Of a DNA stretch of 64,000 nt, positions 659 to 56,619 are shown one piece after another. The stretch comes from Bdellovibrionales bacterium. Lineage in GTDB: Bacteria; Bdellovibrionota; Bdellovibrionia; Bdellovibrionales; JAUICD01. The translations under genes were made by a program, and so were the position numbers. The DNA lies in contig OZ253553.1 in the NCBI GenBank assembly GCA_965262715.1, positions 2,688,001-2,752,000 on the forward strand, read 5' to 3'. The notes beneath the pieces were generated by a model. That model had not been told where the DNA came from and did no database searches. It saw nothing but the letters and a program-made list of their open reading frames with translations. Within the stretch, counting starts at the first letter, position 1; every line of letters starts with the position of its first letter.

Positions 659-1894
659 ATGTCTAAGGATGACTTTCATTTTTTAAACAGTCAGGTCTGG
701 TTAAAGTACACTCAAGAAAGATATTTGCCTCTGGATGAGATCAAATATCGTTTGGAAGGTCTTGGTATTCAAAAAGATAGTTGGCATGAAATCAGACAGC
801 AAGTTCTAAGCTTTAGAAAAGTGGGAGCTGTTATTTTTAATTTGGATAGTATAGGTAAAACATTTTGGTATTATCCTGCGGATTGTATTTACAAGAAACT
901 TTATCAAATTGAAAAGCTTGGTATTTCTCTATTCTATCAAATAGAAAATTATAGTGCTTTTAAAAATGAGTTTATAAATTATTCATTAACGGAAGAATCT
1001 GTGACCTCTTCTATTTATGAGGGAGCTAATAGCACAAGGGCAAAAGCCAAGGAGCTTATTGCCATAGGTCATCGGGCAAAAAATAAAGATGAGCAGATGT
1101 TAATTAATAATTATAAAGCTATGCAATGGGTTAAAAAAAATTTCAGTCTTCCAATATCAAATAGTCTTATTTTAAGGATACATAAAATTATAACAGATAA
1201 AACTTTAGAGAAAAACTGTGGTCAATTCCGTGATGATGTTGTTTATGTAGGAAAACATGAAGGGGTATTATATAGTAAAATAACAAAAACTTTAGAAGAG
1301 ATCACTTATTTAATAACGAATCATCCAAGATTTCTAAATGGTTTAGATAAATTAATGCAGAGCATATTTTTTCATTATTTTATTGCTTATGTTCATCCAT
1401 TTTTTGACGGTAATGGCAGGACTGCAAGAACTTTGTTTTACTTAAGTGCAATGAAAAACAATCTTAAATTTGTGGAGTTGCTTTCTATTTCTGCAAATTT
1501 AAAGCATGGTTCGAAATATGAACGGTCCTTTGACTTAGTAAAGAAATATGAATTTGATTTAACATATTTCATTGATTTTTGTTTGGATTCATTGATTTTC
1601 GCACTTAATCATACACATCAGCGTGTAAATTATCTTAAAAATATTTCAAGGCTTATTGATATTATAAGAGTTAACAATCATCAAATATTTTTATTACAAA
1701 AAATGACTTTAAACAAATACAAACCGATCACTATTGAGGAATATGCAGAAAGTATAAATAAGTCAAGAGAGCTTGCCAGAAAGGATTTGAAAGATTTAGT
1801 AAAAAAGAAATTGTTAAGTGAATGTAAAAAAGGCAAAAAGTATGTTTATTATATTGAAAACAAAGTATTAAGTCAGAAGCTAAAAATGCTCTAA
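659..1894 (+). CDS. Fic family protein with C-terminal winged helix-turn-helix
   Basis: Canonical Fic motif HPFFDGNGRTAR, inhibitory-helix-like SSIYEG, C-terminal ELARKDLKDLVKKKLL. RBS AGAGG. Confidence 0.9.
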   Translation: MSKDDFHFLNSQVWLKYTQERYLPLDEIKYRLEGLGIQKDSWHEIRQQVLSFRKVGAVIFNLDSIGKTFWYYPADCIYKKLYQIEKLGISLFYQIENYSAFKNEFINYSLTEESVTSSIYEGANSTRAKAKELIAIGHRAKNKDEQMLINNYKAMQWVKKNFSLPISNSLILRIHKIITDKTLEKNCGQFRDDVVYVGKHEGVLYSKITKTLEEITYLITNHPRFLNGLDKLMQSIFFHYFIAYVHPFFDGNGRTARTLFYLSAMKNNLKFVELLSISANLKHGSKYERSFDLVKKYEFDLTYFIDFCLDSLIFALNHTHQRVNYLKNISRLIDIIRVNNHQIFLLQKMTLNKYKPITIEEYAESINKSRELARKDLKDLVKKKLLSECKKGKKYVYYIENKVLSQKLKML

Positions 1895-4383: not shown

Positions 4384-5538
4384 ATGAATTTAAAGAATCT
4401 AGATTTTGAAACAAGAGCTATTTATGCTGACCAACTTCCAGATGAACTCACTGGAGCTGTGATTACTCCTATAACACTTTCTACCACATTTGTTCAAGAC
4501 TCTCCTGGGGAGCATAGAGGTTATGAATACTCACGTAGCGGTAATCCTACACGTATGATCTATGAAAGGCATTTAGCTAATTTAGAGTCAGGAAGCTATG
4601 GTTTTGCCTTTTCATCAGGATCTGCTGCTCTTACAACTCTACTCCATCTTTTTAAAACAGGTGATCATATTATCTCTATGAATAATATTTATAGTGGCTC
4701 AGTTTGTTTAATCAATCAATTTATAAAAAGTCAGGGGATTAAGGTTGACTTTGTAGATCTATCAGATATTCATCAATTTGAAGATGCTATTTGTGAAAAC
4801 ACAAAATGTGTTTGGGTAGAGACTCCGACAAACCCTACATTAAAGCTTATTGATATAGGAAAAATATCTCAAATAGCTAGAAAGAAAAATATCTTAGTAG
4901 CTGTTGATAACACTTTTATGAGCCCTTTTTTTCAAAGGCCACTTTTATTAGGTGCAGATGTCAGTTGTCATTCAACGACTAAATATATTGGTGGCCATAG
5001 TGATGTAGTTGGTGGTTTTATGGCTGTGAAAAATAAGGAATTGGCTGAAAAATTGTACTTTTTACAAAACTCTCTTGGAGCTATTGCATCGCCTTTTGAT
5101 AGCTTTATGTGTTTACGATCTCTTAAAACTCTAGGTATTCGAATGAAAGCGCATGCTTTCAATGCACAGAAGATAGCTCATTTTTTAGAAGATCATGCTA
5201 AGATAGAGAAAGTTATTTATCCTGGATTAAAAAGTCATCCACAACACAGTTTAGCTCAAAAACAGATGTATGGTTTTGGAGGAATGTTGAGTTTTTACCT
5301 TAAAGGAGGACTTAAAGAAGTTAGAACTTTTTTAAGAAAATTACAAATATTTAACTTAGCAGTGAGTTTAGGAGGCACAGAATCTTTGATAGCGCATCCT
5401 GCAATTATGACACATGAGTACCTCTCAGAAAAAAAGCGTCAGAACTTTGAGATCACTGATAATTTTATTCGAGTGAGCGTTGGTATTGAAAACTTCCAAG
5501 ATCTTATTAACGATTTAGATCAAGCTCTCACCTTTTAA
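4384..5538 (+). CDS. Cystathionine gamma-synthase/gamma-lyase (Cys/Met metabolism PLP enzyme)
   Basis: YSRSGNPTR, ETPTNP, DNTF, HSTTKYIGGHSD (PLP lysine), RVSVGIE. Confidence 0.93.
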   Translation: MNLKNLDFETRAIYADQLPDELTGAVITPITLSTTFVQDSPGEHRGYEYSRSGNPTRMIYERHLANLESGSYGFAFSSGSAALTTLLHLFKTGDHIISMNNIYSGSVCLINQFIKSQGIKVDFVDLSDIHQFEDAICENTKCVWVETPTNPTLKLIDIGKISQIARKKNILVAVDNTFMSPFFQRPLLLGADVSCHSTTKYIGGHSDVVGGFMAVKNKELAEKLYFLQNSLGAIASPFDSFMCLRSLKTLGIRMKAHAFNAQKIAHFLEDHAKIEKVIYPGLKSHPQHSLAQKQMYGFGGMLSFYLKGGLKEVRTFLRKLQIFNLAVSLGGTESLIAHPAIMTHEYLSEKKRQNFEITDNFIRVSVGIENFQDLINDLDQALTF

Positions 5539-5797
5539 CATGATGTAAAAAAGCAAAGAATATCTCCCTACTCAAAATGAACAAATTTTCTAGGCAATTA
5601 CCATTTTACTGATGGTGTGAACCATCAGGCTGACTATGGTACATAACAACGATTTCCTTAACATAGTGTTAAGGAATGAGGAAGTCCTCCTTAGTAAAAA
5701 TGCCTCAAGCTTTCTAGGTAGTAAGCTTTTTACGACGACGAGAGTCGTCGAGCTTACTGCCAGAAAGTTGCTAGAAGCAAGAGATATTTTGAGTGAA
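5531..5797 (+). repeat. Structured repeat family 1, composite (partial outer unit plus full inner unit)
   Basis: Hairpins CTGATGG/CCATCAG, TTCCTTAACA-TAG-TGTTAAGGAA, GGTAGTAAGCT/AGCTTACTGCC and CGACGAC-GAGA-GTCGTCG. Its left end supplies the TAA stop of the upstream gene. Confidence 0.85.
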
Positions 5798-5942
5798 AGA
5801 TCGAAATTAATAAGCTTTCTTAAACGTTGAGATATATATGACAATATTTATATGTACGATAATAGAAGCAAAAAGTCATTTTCTTACTATAAAGCTAAAC
5901 CTTAACCTACTGCGAAGATTTGAGTACTTGTTAGAAAATTGG

Positions 5943-6208
5943 TTCCTTAACATGATGTAAAAAGCAAAGACTATCTTCTTACTCAAAAGGAACAAACTTT
6001 CTAGGCAATGACCATTTTACTGATGGTGTGAACCATCAGGCTGACTATGGTAAATAACAACGATTTCCTTAACATAGTGTTAAGGAATGAGGAAGTCCTC
6101 CTTAGTAAAAATGCCTCAAGCTTTCTAGGTAGTAAGCTTTTTACGACGACGAGAGTCGTCGAGCTTACTGCCAGAAAGTTGCTAGAAGCAAGAGGCATTT
6201 TGAGTGAA
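5943..6208 (+). repeat. Structured repeat family 1, composite; near-identical tandem copy of 5531-5797
   Basis: Direct sequence identity at a ~411-bp offset, including about 25 bp of 3' flank. Confidence 0.85.
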
Positions 6209-6520
6209 AGATCGAAATTGATAAGCCTTCTTAGACCTAAAGAGGTTATAGATCTACTTATAAATCAAGAGAATGCTGACATTTTAGGAAGATACATGCT
6301 TCAAGGTACAAATTACTCAAAAGAGGAATTTATAGAGATTGAAAATGAGATTATTAGAAGTAAGGAGGACCAAGTAATGAAAAGCACTTATGATCGATTG
6401 ATTGATGAAGGAATAGAAAAGGGAATGGAAAAGGTGGCTTTGCGGATGTTAGAGCAAAATATGGAACTGAAATTTATTGCCAAAATAACAAATCTTTCAA
6501 TCCAACAACTTAAAAAATAG
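6209..6520 (+). pseudogene. C-terminal fragment of an Rpn/YhgA-like protein, containing an intact small ORF 6377..6520 (RpnS-like)
   Basis: MKSTYDRLIDEGIEKGMEKVALRMLEQNMELKFIAKITNLS is a typical Rpn C-terminus. Strong SD TAAGGAGG at 6361 precedes the in-frame ATG 6377. Confidence 0.75.
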
Positions 6521-6804
6521 ATTCTAAAAAAAGAAAGCTGGGAGCATAGCGGGTTTTTGTTTTGCATTCAGACATGTAAAGGTTATATCTTACTTTAAGC
6601 ATTTCTTAGTATATTCAATATTGATTCAAATTGATACAAGATAAAAATAAAAAAGATTTTTTATTTTGATTTTCAAAAAATACATGTACAATAAAGAACA
6701 TCAAGTCTTGATTTTTTATCATAAGAATTTTCCATTAAAAACTAGTCAAAATGTTTTAAATCCAAAAAAAACTAAAGTACAGTCAACAAAAAGGAATTTA
6801 TTTT

Positions 6805-7348
6805 ATGAGCAGTAATAGTATCTTTGATCAATTCACCCATCAATACCCTGTGACCAAAACTCTAAGGTTTGCCCTCAAGCCCATTGGTAAAACAGAAGAG
6901 AACATAAAGAAAAAAGGGTTACTTAAAAAAGATGAAGATTTATCTAAAAAGTATAAACAGGCCAAAAAAATTATTGATGAATATCATAAGAATTATATAA
7001 ATGAAAAACTTAAAAGCTTTTCTTTTAAAATAGAAGACCTACAAGAATTTTCTGACATATATCATAACCTTAAAGAAAATAAAAATGATGATAAACTGCA
7101 AGAAAATTTTAAAACACAACAAAGCAAATTACGTAAAATTTTAGCAGATCAATTTAAAAATAAAAGATAGTTCTATGCCTCAGAATGCAGATGCCAATGG
7201 AGCTTATCACATTGCTTTAAAGGGTCAGTTGATACTTAAACAATTCTCAGAAAATAAAGATACGAAAAGCTTTAAACTAAATTTAAGTAATAAAGCATGG
7301 TATGAGTTTATCCAAAATAAAAAAAATATATCCCGTTGTAAATACTAA
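6805..7348 (+). pseudogene. cas12a: Cas12a (Cpf1) remnant: N-terminal 121 aa joined out of frame to the last ~60 aa
   Basis: 6805..7170 SIFDQFTHQYPVTKTLRFALKPIGKT...YKQAKKIIDEYHK is the Cas12a N-terminus. 7175..7348 MPQNADANGAYHIALKG...LSNKAWYEFIQN is the Cas12a RuvC-III/C-terminus. Confidence 0.9.
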
Positions 7349-7594
7349 TACTATAGAAAATCGAGATATCAAAACAAAAAGCTCAGACAAAACTCAAGTT
7401 GCATGAAATATAAGCTTTGAATTTTAAAATGATATAACTTTTAAAAAGTATGTATATAACCAAACATATTGTACTTGCTATTTGAATTTACGAAACATGA
7501 AGATAAAGGTTTGGATATCAAAAATTTTGGATAAATCTGTTGATTCTTTAGTTAAAAATTGACATAAAAAAAGACTCTCAGTAAACAAGAAGTT

Positions 7595-7928
7595 ATGAAA
7601 AACGATGAAGTGCTAATTGAGCGTATTCGATCCATTCTTTCAAGGCGGAAGGGATTGTTCTCTGAAAAAAGAATGTTTGGTAGTGTTTGTTTTATGCTCA
7701 ATGGCAATATATGTGTTGGCACTTGGAGGAAAGGATCGCTAGAAACACGATGAGATACTTGCAGAACCACACACCAAGCCTGCTAACATGAGTGGTCGAA
7801 TAGTGAAAGGATGGGTGCTTGTAGATCCAGAGGGTATCGAAGATATGACAGTATGGATCAACAGGGCTATCAAATTCACTAACAGCCTTCCTTCTAAATG
7901 GTCCACTTCAGAACCGTTAAACAAATAA
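7595..7928 (+). pseudogene. TfoX/Sxy N-terminal domain protein, frameshifted
   Basis: ERIRSILS...EKRMFGSVCFMLNGNICVG, then a frame change near 7740 to HDEILAEPHTKP...GRIVKGWVLVDPEG...WINRAIKFTNSLPSK. Confidence 0.7.
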
Positions 7929-8019
7929 CCACAATTAAGAAAGATGACTACAAAACATAAGTTTTTCCTAGAGCAAAGACTTTTTTCAATACATTTGATA
8001 AAATTTGTATACACCATAA

Positions 8020-8048
8020 TGAGGTATAAAAAAGCTGTTTATTCCTCA
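8020..8048. promoter_or_regulatory. Inverted repeat upstream of the second Fic gene (putative operator)
   Basis: TGAGGTATAAA-N7-TTTATTCCTCA, one mismatch. Confidence 0.4.
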
Positions 8049-8062
8049 AAAATAGGCTATAA

Positions 8063-9256
8063 TTGAGTTATAACTTAGAAAAAAGAGATATCTTAGATAA
8101 GGAAATAGACTCAATGATGCCTTTAAAAAAGAAGATATGGAATTGGCAGAAAGATGAGTGGCCAAACTTTATTTACCAATCCAAAGACTTAGAAGATTTA
8201 GAGCAAACATTCTTACACAATTCAGGTGTGCTTTTTGGCATCTTTAAACATTTAAATGATCAAGATCAATTAAAGGTAGAAATCATTAGCCAAGAAGCTT
8301 TAGAAACATCTGAGATTGAAGGGGAATACCTTGATCGAGAAAGCCTGCAATCTTCTATAGCTCGTCATTTTGGATTAAAAATAACTCAAAAGAAAGTTTC
8401 CTCTCCAGAACGTGGAATCTCTGATCTCTTAATAGATCTTTACAAAAGTTATGATAAAGAATTAAGGCATGAAACCTTATGCCGTTGGCATTACAAGTTA
8501 ATGGGTCATCGTAATGATTTAAGAAATATTGGCTGCTATCGGACTGGGAAAGAGGCAATGCAAGTGATCTCTGGTCCTATACATGCTCCTTATGTTCATT
8601 TTGAAGCACCACCTTTTAAAAGAGTCAAAAAAGAAATGGACAGTTTTATCAACTGGTTCAATATAACAGCTCCAAAAGGCAAATCATCTTTATCTACACT
8701 TGCTCGCTGTGGAATAGCTCATCTTTATTTTGAATGTATTCATCCTTTTGAAGATGGCAATGGGCGAATTGGTCGAGCTTTATCTGAAAAAGTCTTAGCA
8801 CAGAGTTTAGGCAAACCAACTTTAATTGCATTAGCAACTATCCTAAATCAAGATAAAAAAGCTTATTACAAGGCCTTAGAGCAAGCTAGTCAAAAAAATG
8901 AAATCACTGATTGGCTTTGTTATTTTGCAAAAAAGATATTACAAGCACTTTGTTACACACAGTCCCTTATGGAGTTTCTCATTGCAAAAGCAAAGCTATT
9001 TGAACATTTGCAGAGTTGCCTCAATCCAAGACAGGAAAAATGTTTATTGAAAATGTTTCAAGCAGGGCCAAATGGATTTACTGGAGGTTTGAGTGCAGAA
9101 AATTATATCAGAATAACTAAAGCCACACGTGCCACAGCAACCCGCGACTTAAATGATCTTGTTGTCAAAGGTGCTCTCAATAAAACAGGAGAACGTAAAT
9201 CAACACGTTATACCCTTAATATAAAAGCAACTGGGCCTACAAAGTCCACAAGCTAA
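8063..9256 (+). CDS. Fic family protein (DUF4172 N-terminus, C-terminal HTH); start may be ~8114
   Basis: WNWQKDEWPNF, TSEIEGE, HPFEDGNGRIGR, ATATRDLNDLV. Confidence 0.92.
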   Translation: MSYNLEKRDILDKEIDSMMPLKKKIWNWQKDEWPNFIYQSKDLEDLEQTFLHNSGVLFGIFKHLNDQDQLKVEIISQEALETSEIEGEYLDRESLQSSIARHFGLKITQKKVSSPERGISDLLIDLYKSYDKELRHETLCRWHYKLMGHRNDLRNIGCYRTGKEAMQVISGPIHAPYVHFEAPPFKRVKKEMDSFINWFNITAPKGKSSLSTLARCGIAHLYFECIHPFEDGNGRIGRALSEKVLAQSLGKPTLIALATILNQDKKAYYKALEQASQKNEITDWLCYFAKKILQALCYTQSLMEFLIAKAKLFEHLQSCLNPRQEKCLLKMFQAGPNGFTGGLSAENYIRITKATRATATRDLNDLVVKGALNKTGERKSTRYTLNIKATGPTKSTS

Positions 9257-9279
9257 TCATTAAAAGATAAATACCTTCT

Positions 9280-10749
9280 TTACATCATTAAAAAAAACTT
9301 TATTGGTATTTTTACAATGCCTTGCTTTTTGAGATGCTCTATATCGGCACTCTCAGATATGATGACTGCATAGTCCCCAGATATTTTTTTTAAGGTTTTA
9401 ATTGACTGCTTACAATCTTTTTTCCCCATTCCAGTCTCCATAACAATCTGTTTTTTGTTATCAATTTGAACAATAAAATCTGCTCCGCCTTTTTGAGGAT
9501 CATATCTTATATTTCCTATACCCTTGGCAGTAAATTCACAGGTTAAATGCATTGCAACGATATCTTCTAAGTATTTGCCAAAATAGTTTAAAAATGTTGA
9601 ATGTTTTCCTGTTATTCCTAAAAATGCAGCTCTGATAGTAGGAGATGCAAATAAATATTTTGATGGTTTTGTGATTTTAGATGGATTAGAACCATAAGGC
9701 GCAACTTTAATGAGCAGTTCTGTCTGTTCTATAGCATCAAGAAGCTGTTGAATAGTTATTTTAGAAAATTTCATACGATCCGCTAATTTATGAACACTCA
9801 ATGTATCACTTGAAGATATAAGAAATAATAACGTATTGATGGCATTGAGAGTCGTTTGATTAAAAGATTTGAGGTGAGTTATGTCTTCTAAAATGATTTT
9901 ATTTATAACCTCTTGTATGGATCTGAATACATGAGAAGTATTTGATATTTCAAGAGTTGATGGTATAGTGCCTTTTTGTAAATAGTTTCTGATTTCTATT
10001 TTTGGTTTTTCTGGTATCTTGACCCAATATTTCTGCACTTCAGAGTTTAATTTTTTTAATTTTGTATACACCTCTTGACTGTTTTTAGAATAATAAACAG
10101 CTTCTTTGATTTTTTCTTTAAGCTTTGGGTTGGGGTGAATGTTTCTTCCAAGCATTTGATACTCTGTAAAACTGAGTGGATATAATTTTTCAGTAATAAC
10201 TCTTCGGCTAATATCTACATTGGCTTGTAAAGTCAAAGCTGAAGAGCCAGTACAACAGATAAAGGCTTTTTTAGTAGAATCATATATGGTTTTTAAAGTA
10301 AGGCCCCATTGAGGATCATATTGAGCTTCATCAATAAACAAAAAAACTTGATACTCTAATGTTTCAAAAGATTCTCCTAATATCTCTTTATAAGATTCAA
10401 TGACATCTAATAAGCTAAAGCCTCGTATTTTGAGATCATCAAGAGATATGCACAAAATGCGTTTGTTATCATCTACTTTTTCATAAATATGCAAAAATAA
10501 CTGTGACAAAACAGTTGTCTTACCAATACCCCTTAATCCAGGTATCAAAAACCATCTTTTTTCAGACTTTAATAAATAAAAATCATCAAAATACTTTTTA
10601 AGTGTAGGATAAATATGCCTCTTAGGGTAGCTTGTCTTATCCTGATCTGCTCTAACAACACTGTTTTTCAACCGATTGTATCCTATACTTAACTGTTGTT
10701 GCACATACTCTGTAACTTGACTTTTCATTGCACTCTCCCTCAAATCCAT
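9280..10749 (-). CDS. AAA+ ATPase (AAA_14/DUF4143-type) with C-terminal PD-(D/E)XK-like domain
   Basis: Walker A GLRGIGKTT, Walker B LFIDEAQ, TGSS, YPLSFTEY, C-terminal ADFIV...METG. Confidence 0.85.
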   Translation of the reverse strand: MDLRESAMKSQVTEYVQQQLSIGYNRLKNSVVRADQDKTSYPKRHIYPTLKKYFDDFYLLKSEKRWFLIPGLRGIGKTTVLSQLFLHIYEKVDDNKRILCISLDDLKIRGFSLLDVIESYKEILGESFETLEYQVFLFIDEAQYDPQWGLTLKTIYDSTKKAFICCTGSSALTLQANVDISRRVITEKLYPLSFTEYQMLGRNIHPNPKLKEKIKEAVYYSKNSQEVYTKLKKLNSEVQKYWVKIPEKPKIEIRNYLQKGTIPSTLEISNTSHVFRSIQEVINKIILEDITHLKSFNQTTLNAINTLLFLISSSDTLSVHKLADRMKFSKITIQQLLDAIEQTELLIKVAPYGSNPSKITKPSKYLFASPTIRAAFLGITGKHSTFLNYFGKYLEDIVAMHLTCEFTAKGIGNIRYDPQKGGADFIVQIDNKKQIVMETGMGKKDCKQSIKTLKKISGDYAVIISESADIEHLKKQGIVKIPIKFFLMM

Positions 10750-10774
10750 AGCTTATACATTTAAAATGTACCAG

Positions 10775-10868
10775 TTTTAGTATATTGTAATATATTAAAA
10801 ATATCAACTTTTAATATACTAAGATATACTAAAACGATTATTCTTTAGTATATTCTAGTATACTAAAA
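10775..10868. promoter_or_regulatory. Three tandem 26-bp palindromes (TTTTAGTATA-N6-TATACTAAAA) at exact 34-bp period
   Basis: Copies start at 10775, 10809 and 10843, directly upstream of the ATPase start. Confidence 0.7.
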
Positions 10869-11398
10869 ATACAAATTAGAATATGGTACTCAAGGCAATT
10901 CTTATTACAGAGCTAAAATGAGGGATTTTGTGGAGATGACTCTCATCATCTGAAGTCATGCTTCAATTTATCATAATAATTTGAAGTTATATCCCTGTGA
11001 ATTTAGGATTGTAAGAGAAAATGATATTTCTATAGAACTTCTCATAAAAATTATTGTAACATTAGAAAACAAAATATTTTTTGTTTAAATGTGTAGTTTG
11101 TTTCATTTATATATACAATTTAAATAAAGAATCACTTATATCTTACCGATAATTAAACATAGTATCTTTTTTAAATCACAAAATTCTTAACATCACAGTT
11201 TTTCTTCTACTTAACAAAAATAAATGAAAGGGCATTCAAAGTGAATGGCTTGTATAAAACAAAGCATACTTAGAAGCATTACTTTATGCCTATTCATATT
11301 ATTATGCTTACAGAAAGACTGCATATAGTGTGGATCTTGCTAGAAATATCCTAAAGATTGATGCTCGCTGAAACAAAGGTTCTGTAGCTTTTGTCATG

Positions 11399-45437: not shown

Positions 45438-45556
45438 TTATTTTCTAAGTTTTTGGAGTTGTTGGATTGAAAGATTTGTTATTTGAGCTATAAGTTGCAA
45501 TTCCATATTTTGCTCTAACATTCGCAAAGCCACGTTTTCCATTCCTTTCTCTATTC
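45438..45556 (-). pseudogene. Rpn C-terminal fragment, paralog of 6377..6520
   Basis: IEKGMENVALRMLEQNMELQLIAQITNLSIQQLQKLRK*. Confidence 0.75.
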
Positions 45557-55775: not shown

Positions 55776-56619
55776 TTCCTAAATCATTTAAGTTTAATAA
55801 TCTATACTTATAATTTAAAACATTCTCACCGAAAGCCTTTTTAAGCTCTAAAGACTTAAAGTTCAAGTAATCATGGAAGCTCAAAGGTAAATTCCATCCA
55901 CTTTTACCAGAATAAACCAACACAGGGATCACTATGGATGGAGCTTTACGTTTTCCACTCTTAACATCTTTACTGTCTTTCTCATAAATACTTGCTTGAT
56001 ACTTAAGAAGCTGTAAAAAAATATCCGAGTCATTATAGGATTTATGCTCAAAAAGAAAAATAATTTCTACAATCTCATCTGAATCTTTCATCTTCACTGA
56101 AAAAATCACATCAGCTCTCTGCTCCCTAAACACCTGATCTACAAAAACAGTCACTTTTGACTGTAGAGTCTTCCAATCAAAAAGATCAAATTCTTCAGGA
56201 GTTAAAACCAAACGAAACAAGTCTAAAACATACCGCTCCTTGCTATAAATTTCATAAAACAAATGATTGAAAATATGAAAAACTTCACGTTTTAACTCCT
56301 GTTTGTTTTTTGGAAGCTTTACCTTTTTATACTTAGATCTGACCATCACAAAACCTCTTAACTAGCTATGAACCTTATTAAACATAAAAACCTTAATCAA
56401 ATGAAAACTCCTGCTTGCATCATAATTTAATTTCAAAAATATAAAAAAATACTCATCAAAACCTCTCTAGATAAATCCTTCTGCAACAAGACCTCTGAAA
56501 AGTACAGTTCTTCGAGTCCATATTTCATTAGAAATAAAATGGTAAGGTATTAGTTTTTTAAGATTTTGTTTTGCTTTTTCTAAAAAACCAGTATTCTCTC
56601 TAAAACTCTCATATAAAAT

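Follow-up and report, generated by a model that had tools for sequence, protein, structure and literature searches.

The loss of a type V-A CRISPR locus has been reported in Francisella hispaniensis, where, according to the accessible part of a preprint (bioRxiv 10.1101/2023.03.03.530964), all that is left of the locus is a degenerate last repeat, suggested by the authors as a possible recombination target for recapture. As the same part of that source presents it, no cas gene is left in this remnant and the comparison is one between genomes. In the locus described here, in contrast, cas12a has kept both its ends, several flanking blocks survive with it and an intact sister locus lies on the same chromosome; as far as the accessible text goes, the F. 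hispaniensis remnant is the nearest precedent. Loci with two effectors have also been described. Cas12a3 loci can be associated with Cas12a systems (available portion of bioRxiv 10.64898/2026.01.16.699850), and Cas12a3 is characterised, in the available portion of a second report, by a tRNA-loading domain and no aromatic clamp regions, with Cas12a4 as a separate clade (PMC12851939). Like the Cas12a and Cas12a3 dual-effector loci of that portion, the sister locus pairs Cas12a with a Cas12a3-like protein, cas4/cas1/cas2 and one array, whereas of the Cas12a3-like gene the collapsed copy retains just the upstream region. No report of cas12a decaying naturally, or of an effector being replaced in place, was found in the literature searched, from which most subscription journals and supplements were excluded. 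Short-repeat-mediated deletion is known in bacterial pseudogene decay, in which out-of-frame loss is accompanied by further indels in neighbouring genes. The case described here is the same in kind, although a loss of 3.45 kb within one gene and the survival of both gene ends make the relic legible.

The window is a stretch of 64,000 nt, positions 2688001-2752000 of a single 2.94-Mb contig. In our analysis positions 6805-7406 of the window are what is left of a cas12a gene: its two ends, fused out of frame, lie in a stripped-down V-A locus copy and very probably form an inactive pseudogene. The relic aligns to the first ~120 and last ~50 residues of Cas12a/Cpf1 (TIGR04330; PDB 8qwd, 'ReChb'; the 1300-aa chains 5nfv and 8y0b). 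Compared with an intact Cas12a/Cpf1 gene it is without ~85% of the sequence (602 nt in three frames remain of about 4,050 nt), its halves are out of frame and no complete repeat lies nearby. The 5' remnant (6805-7170, + strand) comprises the N-terminus and the start of REC1, in 121 codons ended by a frameshift stop. It corresponds to Cas12a residues ~1-120, matching Pfam REC1 with an E value of 4e-10 (40.6 bits against a cut-off of 37.4), positions 1-110 of the NCBIfam model TIGR04330 and 26 PDB sequences (best E 4e-25). The region upstream (6521-6804, + strand) is identical to that upstream of intact cas12a at 274/284 positions and contains a ribosome-binding site, AGGA at 6792-6795; the Shine-Dalgarno pairing of the start at 6805 is -5.8 kcal/mol, compared with a median of -3.9 for 763 long ORFs of the genome. 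A promoter scan gave 6 sites, with 7.2 +/- 2.8 expected, and was uninformative.

The 3' remnant (7160-7406, + strand) comprises the RuvC-III region and the C-terminal tail, corresponds to the last ~50 Cas12a residues (RuvC_1, E 2e-13; TIGR04330 positions 1238-1288; 26 PDB sequences, best E 4e-12) and includes a 57-aa ORF at 7175-7348. A reading made earlier from the letters of this DNA (the sequence-only reading) had proposed a 121-codon Cas12a N-terminus with a ribosome-binding site and, 4 nt past its stop, a 57-aa Cas12a C-terminal ORF. The domain and PDB matches, the latter labelled Cas12a, Cpf1, 'ReChb' or 'nuclease', bear out both identifications and go far beyond what chance would give. 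The same reading had the 3' piece start at the ATG and end at 7348, and stated that the ORF track had missed it; the ORF itself stands, but the true span of the piece is 7160-7406 and an ORF listing at >=45 aa includes it. Asp6 of this ORF, in the motif ADANG, aligns with residue 1255 of chain 8y0b and is presumably the third RuvC catalytic residue. ADANG is the sole RuvC motif left in the remnant, which shows the N-terminal/REC1 homology of a Cas12a without the single ORF of ~1200-1400 aa.

A search for longer proteins returned 26 at E<=1e-10 among 607 candidates. An intact, uncharacterised relative had been predicted, and it exists: P0001 (1357 aa) is identical to the 5' piece at 111/121 residues, and it is joined by P0002 (1343 aa, 105/119), P0003 (1352 aa, 95/119) and P0027, which comes from the P0002 cluster (1350 aa, 99/119). 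These four, here called the parents, show 79-92% identity to the 5' piece and 72-81% to the 3' piece, where 41-44 of 54-57 columns are identical (42-44/54 in P0001, P0002 and P0027). All are unnamed and are singletons or pairs in the protein collection. P0001 has REC1, REC2, PI-like, NUC and RuvC domains, and all four parents have the three RuvC acidic motifs; the REC2, PI and NUC domains found in P0001 are absent from the window pieces, and the parental motifs IGIDRGE and FEDLN/LEDLN fell in the deleted part. In a phylogenetic analysis the relic is placed within the group of the parents (UFBoot 97, 92), while the 1407-aa Cas12a resident in the same genome groups apart from it with P0036-P0039 and P0046 (UFBoot 99); the tree has 33 rows and the 160 columns covered by the pieces, with G244 and L013 dropped (empty extraction) and G355 excluded because it has no N-terminus. 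At the DNA level, genome contigs yielded 27 related loci (best 53%), none of them a ~90%-identical parent, metagenome contigs yielded none among 74 candidates, and a degenerate-pattern search yielded 2 loci at 54-57% only. The relic has led to intact but unnamed Cas12a proteins of one clade that could be tested for PAM and activity.

Searched against the window by tblastn, P0001 falls into three pieces, residues 1-123, 1277-1332 and 1331-1357. The comparison with full-length parents confirms the proposal of a single large internal deletion joining the Cas12a termini, and revises its size, put earlier at roughly 1,100 codons, to 3,437-3,473 nt (~1,150 codons). At the junction, ATAAAAGAT at 7160-7168 (+ strand), the bases give N-K-R when read in the frame of the 5' piece and I-K-D in that of the 3' piece, and the 3' homology begins at 7160, five codons upstream of the ATG (IKDSS|MPQ). 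In the parents FKNK(R/K)L occupies residues 116-122, and (N/D)IKDNSMPQ is found around residue 1270. The same bases agree with the parents in both frames, which suggests a deletion between short direct repeats. Junction microhomology had been anticipated near 7155-7170, and from the parent proteins we infer one of 6-9 nt. Its length depends on the parental codons: NKR with a following TTA or TTG leucine would give 9 nt, any other leucine codon 8 nt, and NKK, which is what P0001 has, 6 nt. In G001, a genome of the same genus, a same-clade allele carries TTAAAAGAT on the 3' side. Among random breakpoint pairs in five intact cas12a genes an overlap of >=6 nt occurs in 0.3-0.5% and one of >=8 nt in 0.03-0.06%.

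The deletion length is 2 mod 3, that is out of frame, against 4/4 parents. The stop at 7168-7170 arises from the D-S codons when these are read with a shift of one base, and the D-N of the parents likewise gives a stop if coded GAT AAT. The stop thus exists because the deletion shifted the frame, and no selection is needed to explain it. The ATG at 7175 is the internal Met of the parental NSMPQ; it has no Shine-Dalgarno site and its pairing with the 16S tail is -1.1 kcal/mol, compared with -5.8 at the true start. A second frameshift, of one base, falls in the A8 run at 7319-7326 and masks the true end of the 3' piece at 7406; the 28-aa tail thus hidden, up to that stop, is identical to the P0001 tail at 21/28 residues. 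This frameshift, in a weakly conserved variable tail, could predate the main deletion. An out-of-frame deletion against every parent together with a second frameshift is the frame structure of a pseudogene.

The 121-aa peptide, with or without the 57-aa piece, might instead have been retained in a regulatory role, such as binding crRNA or dampening the resident Cas12a or the Cas12a3-like effector; coupled and retained mini-peptides had also been considered in the sequence-only reading. Given the intact upstream region, which is as like that of the intact gene as described above, and a good Shine-Dalgarno site, the peptide may well be made, and both possible targets are present in the same cell. 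Highly conserved columns are changed in 0/27 cases in the 5' piece and 0/12 in the 3' piece, and private changes number 2 and 3, where the intact parents span 5-21 and 0-7. Unchanged conserved residues would fit a recent deletion and would equally fit retention. However, the stop is explained by the frameshift alone, the second start is without a Shine-Dalgarno site, and PI, REC2, NUC and two of the three RuvC motifs are missing. The junction is also unique among 384 genomes of the order, with no match across it in the 383 others and no exact copy in viral contigs, and rpn, tfoX and the array alongside it are broken. Among proteins of 66-212 aa, only 3 of 32 candidates are other short N-terminal pieces, and these are 53-59% identical with unrelated ends. 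Retention as a regulator is in our judgement very unlikely, and the coupled mini-peptides find no support: the stop and the ATG are by-products of the breakpoint.

Another alternative is that the collapse is an assembly error or a minority allele in an organism that has a full-length gene at this position. The assembly is of a genome with many repeats and the junction is A-rich. Five sequencing runs hold part of the stretch, and four of them, all from one sample, hold 93-100% of its words; no RNA run was among those listed. In each of these four a 1007-nt contig (6711-7717) spans the junction without a single difference or gap; its depths are 4.5, 10.5, 15.7 and 5.9, compared with flanking single-copy depths of 4.3-5.8, 10.2-13, 15.5-20.4 and 5.6-8.6. 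At 80% likeness no loose end was found at 7160-7168 among the matches listed (20 of 24), and tblastn found no middle part of a P0001-like gene elsewhere in the assembly. Loose ends at 7185 and 7224, with unrelated flanks, were taken to be the cas12a of another organism. The fifth run, X5, has a small share of the stretch and covers only 7444-7491 and the tfoX region, not cas12a. The four junction-bearing runs may be the source sample of the assembly itself, and contigs drop rare alleles; the contigs argue against an assembler mis-join, while a rare intact allele could still exist. With the junction reproduced at single-copy depth by separately assembled contigs in 4/4 runs, the mis-join for which a check of read support had been suggested was not seen, and we hold an assembly error or minority allele to be extremely improbable.

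An intact V-A locus lies on the same contig, 93 kb away (genome 2589509-2607940), with an array, Cas12a, a Cas12a3-like gene and cas4/cas1/cas2. The resident cas12a (genome 2597532-2601755, L001:7532-11755, - strand) encodes 1407 aa and scores 980 bits against TIGR04330, for which the cut-off is 300; it belongs to a divergent clade, its closest relative being 41% identical over residues 15-600. The Cas12a3-like gene (genome 2591988-2595992, L001:1991-5992, - strand) is intact and encodes a 1334-aa protein that has no NCBIfam match and, in the PDB, matches Cas12a3 structures only (21we, E 4e-72; 9hlx, E 7e-62). The protein carries GIDRG, LLEDL and DPDKVAAYNIA, which we take to be RuvC motifs, and two CxxC, which we take to be a zinc ribbon. 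By these features the protein is Cas12a3-like, and it may be a Cas12a3 or a Cas12a4. The cas4 of the locus is TIGR04328, cas1 and cas2 were named from sequence and gene order, and genes for rpn (315 aa), tfoX (120 aa) and EcsC-like proteins are also present. Of the 60 repeats, 59 are in one array and one is detached, and the two effectors have this one array in common. With its full-length Cas12a, array and cas4/cas1/cas2 the sister copy appears complete as a V-A locus. The genome-wide repeat search that had been recommended found 60 full V-A repeat motifs, all of them outside the window. The earlier conclusion that a V-A system had been inactivated in this lineage does not survive these findings: since the sister locus is intact, the lineage kept V-A immunity and one of two loci collapsed. 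The relic in this way leads to an intact locus with a divergent Cas12a and a Cas12a3-like effector on one 60-repeat array.

Most spacers of the sister array (51/60) have a length of 25-28 nt, and 9 were left undelimited by the script; 56/60 are unique. A block of three spacers is duplicated (L001:14418-14800), the last two before the trailer spacer are identical, and one full repeat-spacer unit is separated from the array by 769 nt. Spacer 28 matches the chromosome at 26/26 positions (L041:6807-6832, genome 156807-156832), within a 410-aa gene without a Pfam match. The bases adjacent to this self-match are TCAT, not TTTV. The crRNA of spacer 28 would be complementary to the mRNA, in which AUGAAA follows, and this could matter for an RNA-triggered effector.

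Window positions 5535-11326 correspond to the sister locus block by block and in the same order, with flanks that are 89-98% identical. The left edge (5535-5825) is a dispersed hairpin repeat element that ends in a truncated half of a V-A repeat (5808-5825) and abuts a metB-like gene, which in G001 has other neighbours. A second copy of the element, with the truncated last repeat of the lost array (6214-6236), occupies 5947-6236, as identified by blastn matches to the sister trailer and array repeats; over 5535-6236 the identity to the sister array-trailer region is 672/701. It is followed by a lone 27-nt piece (6237-6263, - strand) of spacer size that is absent from the 60 sister spacers and is probably a spacer; a 27-nt window offset from it by one base has 6 mismatches to its best other genome match and 14 to its best array match. 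Next comes the 3' third of rpn (YhgA-like, Transposase_31; 6264-6520, + strand), which matches the 3' end of the sister rpn at 253/257 positions, joins the array trailer at ATC and has two more internal gaps of 36 and 9 nt. Beyond the cas12a relic lies a tfoX-N pseudogene (7595-7928, + strand) with a frameshifting 20-nt gap and indels of 9 nt and 1 nt (370/415 identical to the sister tfoX). A fic gene (DUF4172-Fic, + strand) and an ATPase gene (AAA_14/DUF4143, - strand), identified by Pfam at 8063-10749 and single copy in the genome except for a 126-nt piece, are not in the sister locus; the segment 7961-11122 that holds them is peculiar to the window copy. The right edge (11123-11326, + strand) is the upstream region of the Cas12a3-like gene, which stops 41 nt short of the start codon and is identical to genome 2596236-2596033 at 196/204 positions.

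No tblastn match to cas1, cas2, cas4 or the Cas12a3-like gene was found in the window, and of the 60 copies of the V-A repeat motif TTTCTAC...GTAGAT (36-nt repeats) none is there, only half-repeats without the hairpin. The observation that no cas1, cas2, cas4 or array is visible in the window thus holds for the cas genes but not entirely for the array, of which the half-repeats and the 27-nt piece remain. Without a whole array or cas4/cas1/cas2, the window copy would not be a working V-A locus. A regulatory mini-array was considered for the 27-nt piece and rejected, since neither cas upstream regions nor the rest of the genome hold a near match and the hairpin handle has been lost; ATCTAC at 6252-6257 is less likely to be the start of a next repeat, as this would leave a 15-nt spacer. 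The dispersed hairpin element has 322 matches in the genome at E<=1e-5, and its copies at the array trailer, in the window (5535-6236) and in the sister locus (L001:17140-18440), are each fused to a truncated CRISPR repeat. Two Fic-domain genes lie within 9 kb of each other, at window 659-1894 and 8063-9256, the latter inside the collapsed locus beside the ATPase gene. Many copies or 3' fragments of rpn (YhgA-like) occur genome-wide, including window 45441-45533 and 55786-56220.

We suggest that the V-A scaffold came to exist twice, by duplication or by a second acquisition from a close relative, and that one locus copy, being redundant, would then have shrunk by successive deletions, several of them at short repeats. 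The ~3.45-kb loss from cas12a would be one such deletion between short direct repeats, and a recent one. The same 5.8 kb contains other lesions: the array is reduced to half-repeats and the lone 27-nt piece, rpn is 5'-truncated, tfoX is frameshifted and the Cas12a3-like gene and cas4/cas1/cas2 are absent. In a less supported step, the cas12a body of the surviving copy would have been replaced after codon 14 by that of a divergent Cas12a, with the promoter and start kept. The relic is very probably an ordinary pseudogene with a useful evolutionary footprint. Its value is mainly indirect, in leading to full-length relatives and to what is likely a nuclease-gene swap.

Cas12a occurs above the family cut-off in 10/384 genomes of the order, this one included. 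In the stretches fetched from the 9 other Cas12a-bearing genomes, a Cas12a3-like gene lies near cas12a in 6, and homologs of 38-50% identity adjoin cas12a in G001, G370, G309, G307, G300, G355 and L023. The same-clade cas12a of G001 (L061:9349-12343) has suffered a separate out-of-frame deletion of ~1 kb after MKNPDSIFKEFTNQY, known from one assembly. It starts directly after FTNQY and leaves a 982-aa frame from an internal Met. In the same genome the Cas12a3-like gene is complete and both cas4 and cas1 are cut; the fetched stretch holds 6 repeats. With the 5' piece as query cas12a was found in only 2/60 relatives and G001 was missed, because it has lost that part; a family search recovered it.

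The first 41 nt of the relic and of the resident cas12a are identical at 40 positions, and the next 61 nt at only 39. Together with flanks that are 89-98% identical, the shared start would fit a relic that arose as a partial copy of the resident cas12a and then underwent its deletion. Beyond codon 14, however, the relic protein shares only 34/107 and 18/53 residues with the resident, as against 84-99/107 and 40-43/53 with the four parents, and the two group apart in the tree; a duplicate of the resident gene is next to impossible. A 4635-nt contig in runs X2-X4 has the resident-type switch at window 6845. The first 14 residues of both genes match P0001 at 12/14, better than they match the resident's own relatives. 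This suggests that a P0001-type gene was the first occupant of the scaffold and that in the surviving copy the cas12a body after codon 14 was exchanged for a new one; gene conversion of the upstream region is a possible alternative.

A related alternative is that the two genes arrived independently and that their promoters and flanks were homogenised by gene conversion, with no swap and with neighbours of the relic that were never a complete CRISPR locus. The uneven identity of the scaffold (89-98%) and the presence of fic and the ATPase gene in one copy only agree with this, and the resident's closest relative, at 41%, is too far away to polarise the change. Five blocks in the same order and orientation over 5.8 kb speak against it, however, as do the 14 residues that in both genes are nearer to P0001 than to the resident's relatives, and G001, in which a P0001-clade cas12a lies beside a Cas12a3-like gene. 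We regard independent arrivals as most improbable and prefer replacement of the cas12a body. If this replacement is true, the pair of loci is a within-genome record of a change of nuclease without a change of promoter or array.

Because identity drops from 40/41 to 39/61 at codon 14, and because the G001 deletion begins after FTxQY, we speculate that the FTxQY motif (codons 10-15) is a recurrent recombination point for in-place swaps of the nuclease body in V-A loci. We put this forward tentatively, as a generalisation that is rather unlikely to hold. A locus swapped in this way would keep its promoter, start codon, array and Cas12a3-like partner, and both outcomes would be preserved in this genome, the incoming divergent Cas12a at the live locus and the former allele in the relic.

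Among the other Cas12a-bearing genomes, the Cas12a frame of G011 (L006:7987-12891) is unusually long, with 1634 aa from a TTG, an N-terminal extension of ~115 residues and a different insert in the PI region. The genome studied here has further cas1 homologs at ~1345000-1372000 (28%) and ~2338000-2360000 (24%), each with a separate repeat family, in which the commonest 24-mer is present in 24 and 16 copies. This points to the likely presence of at least two additional CRISPR systems.
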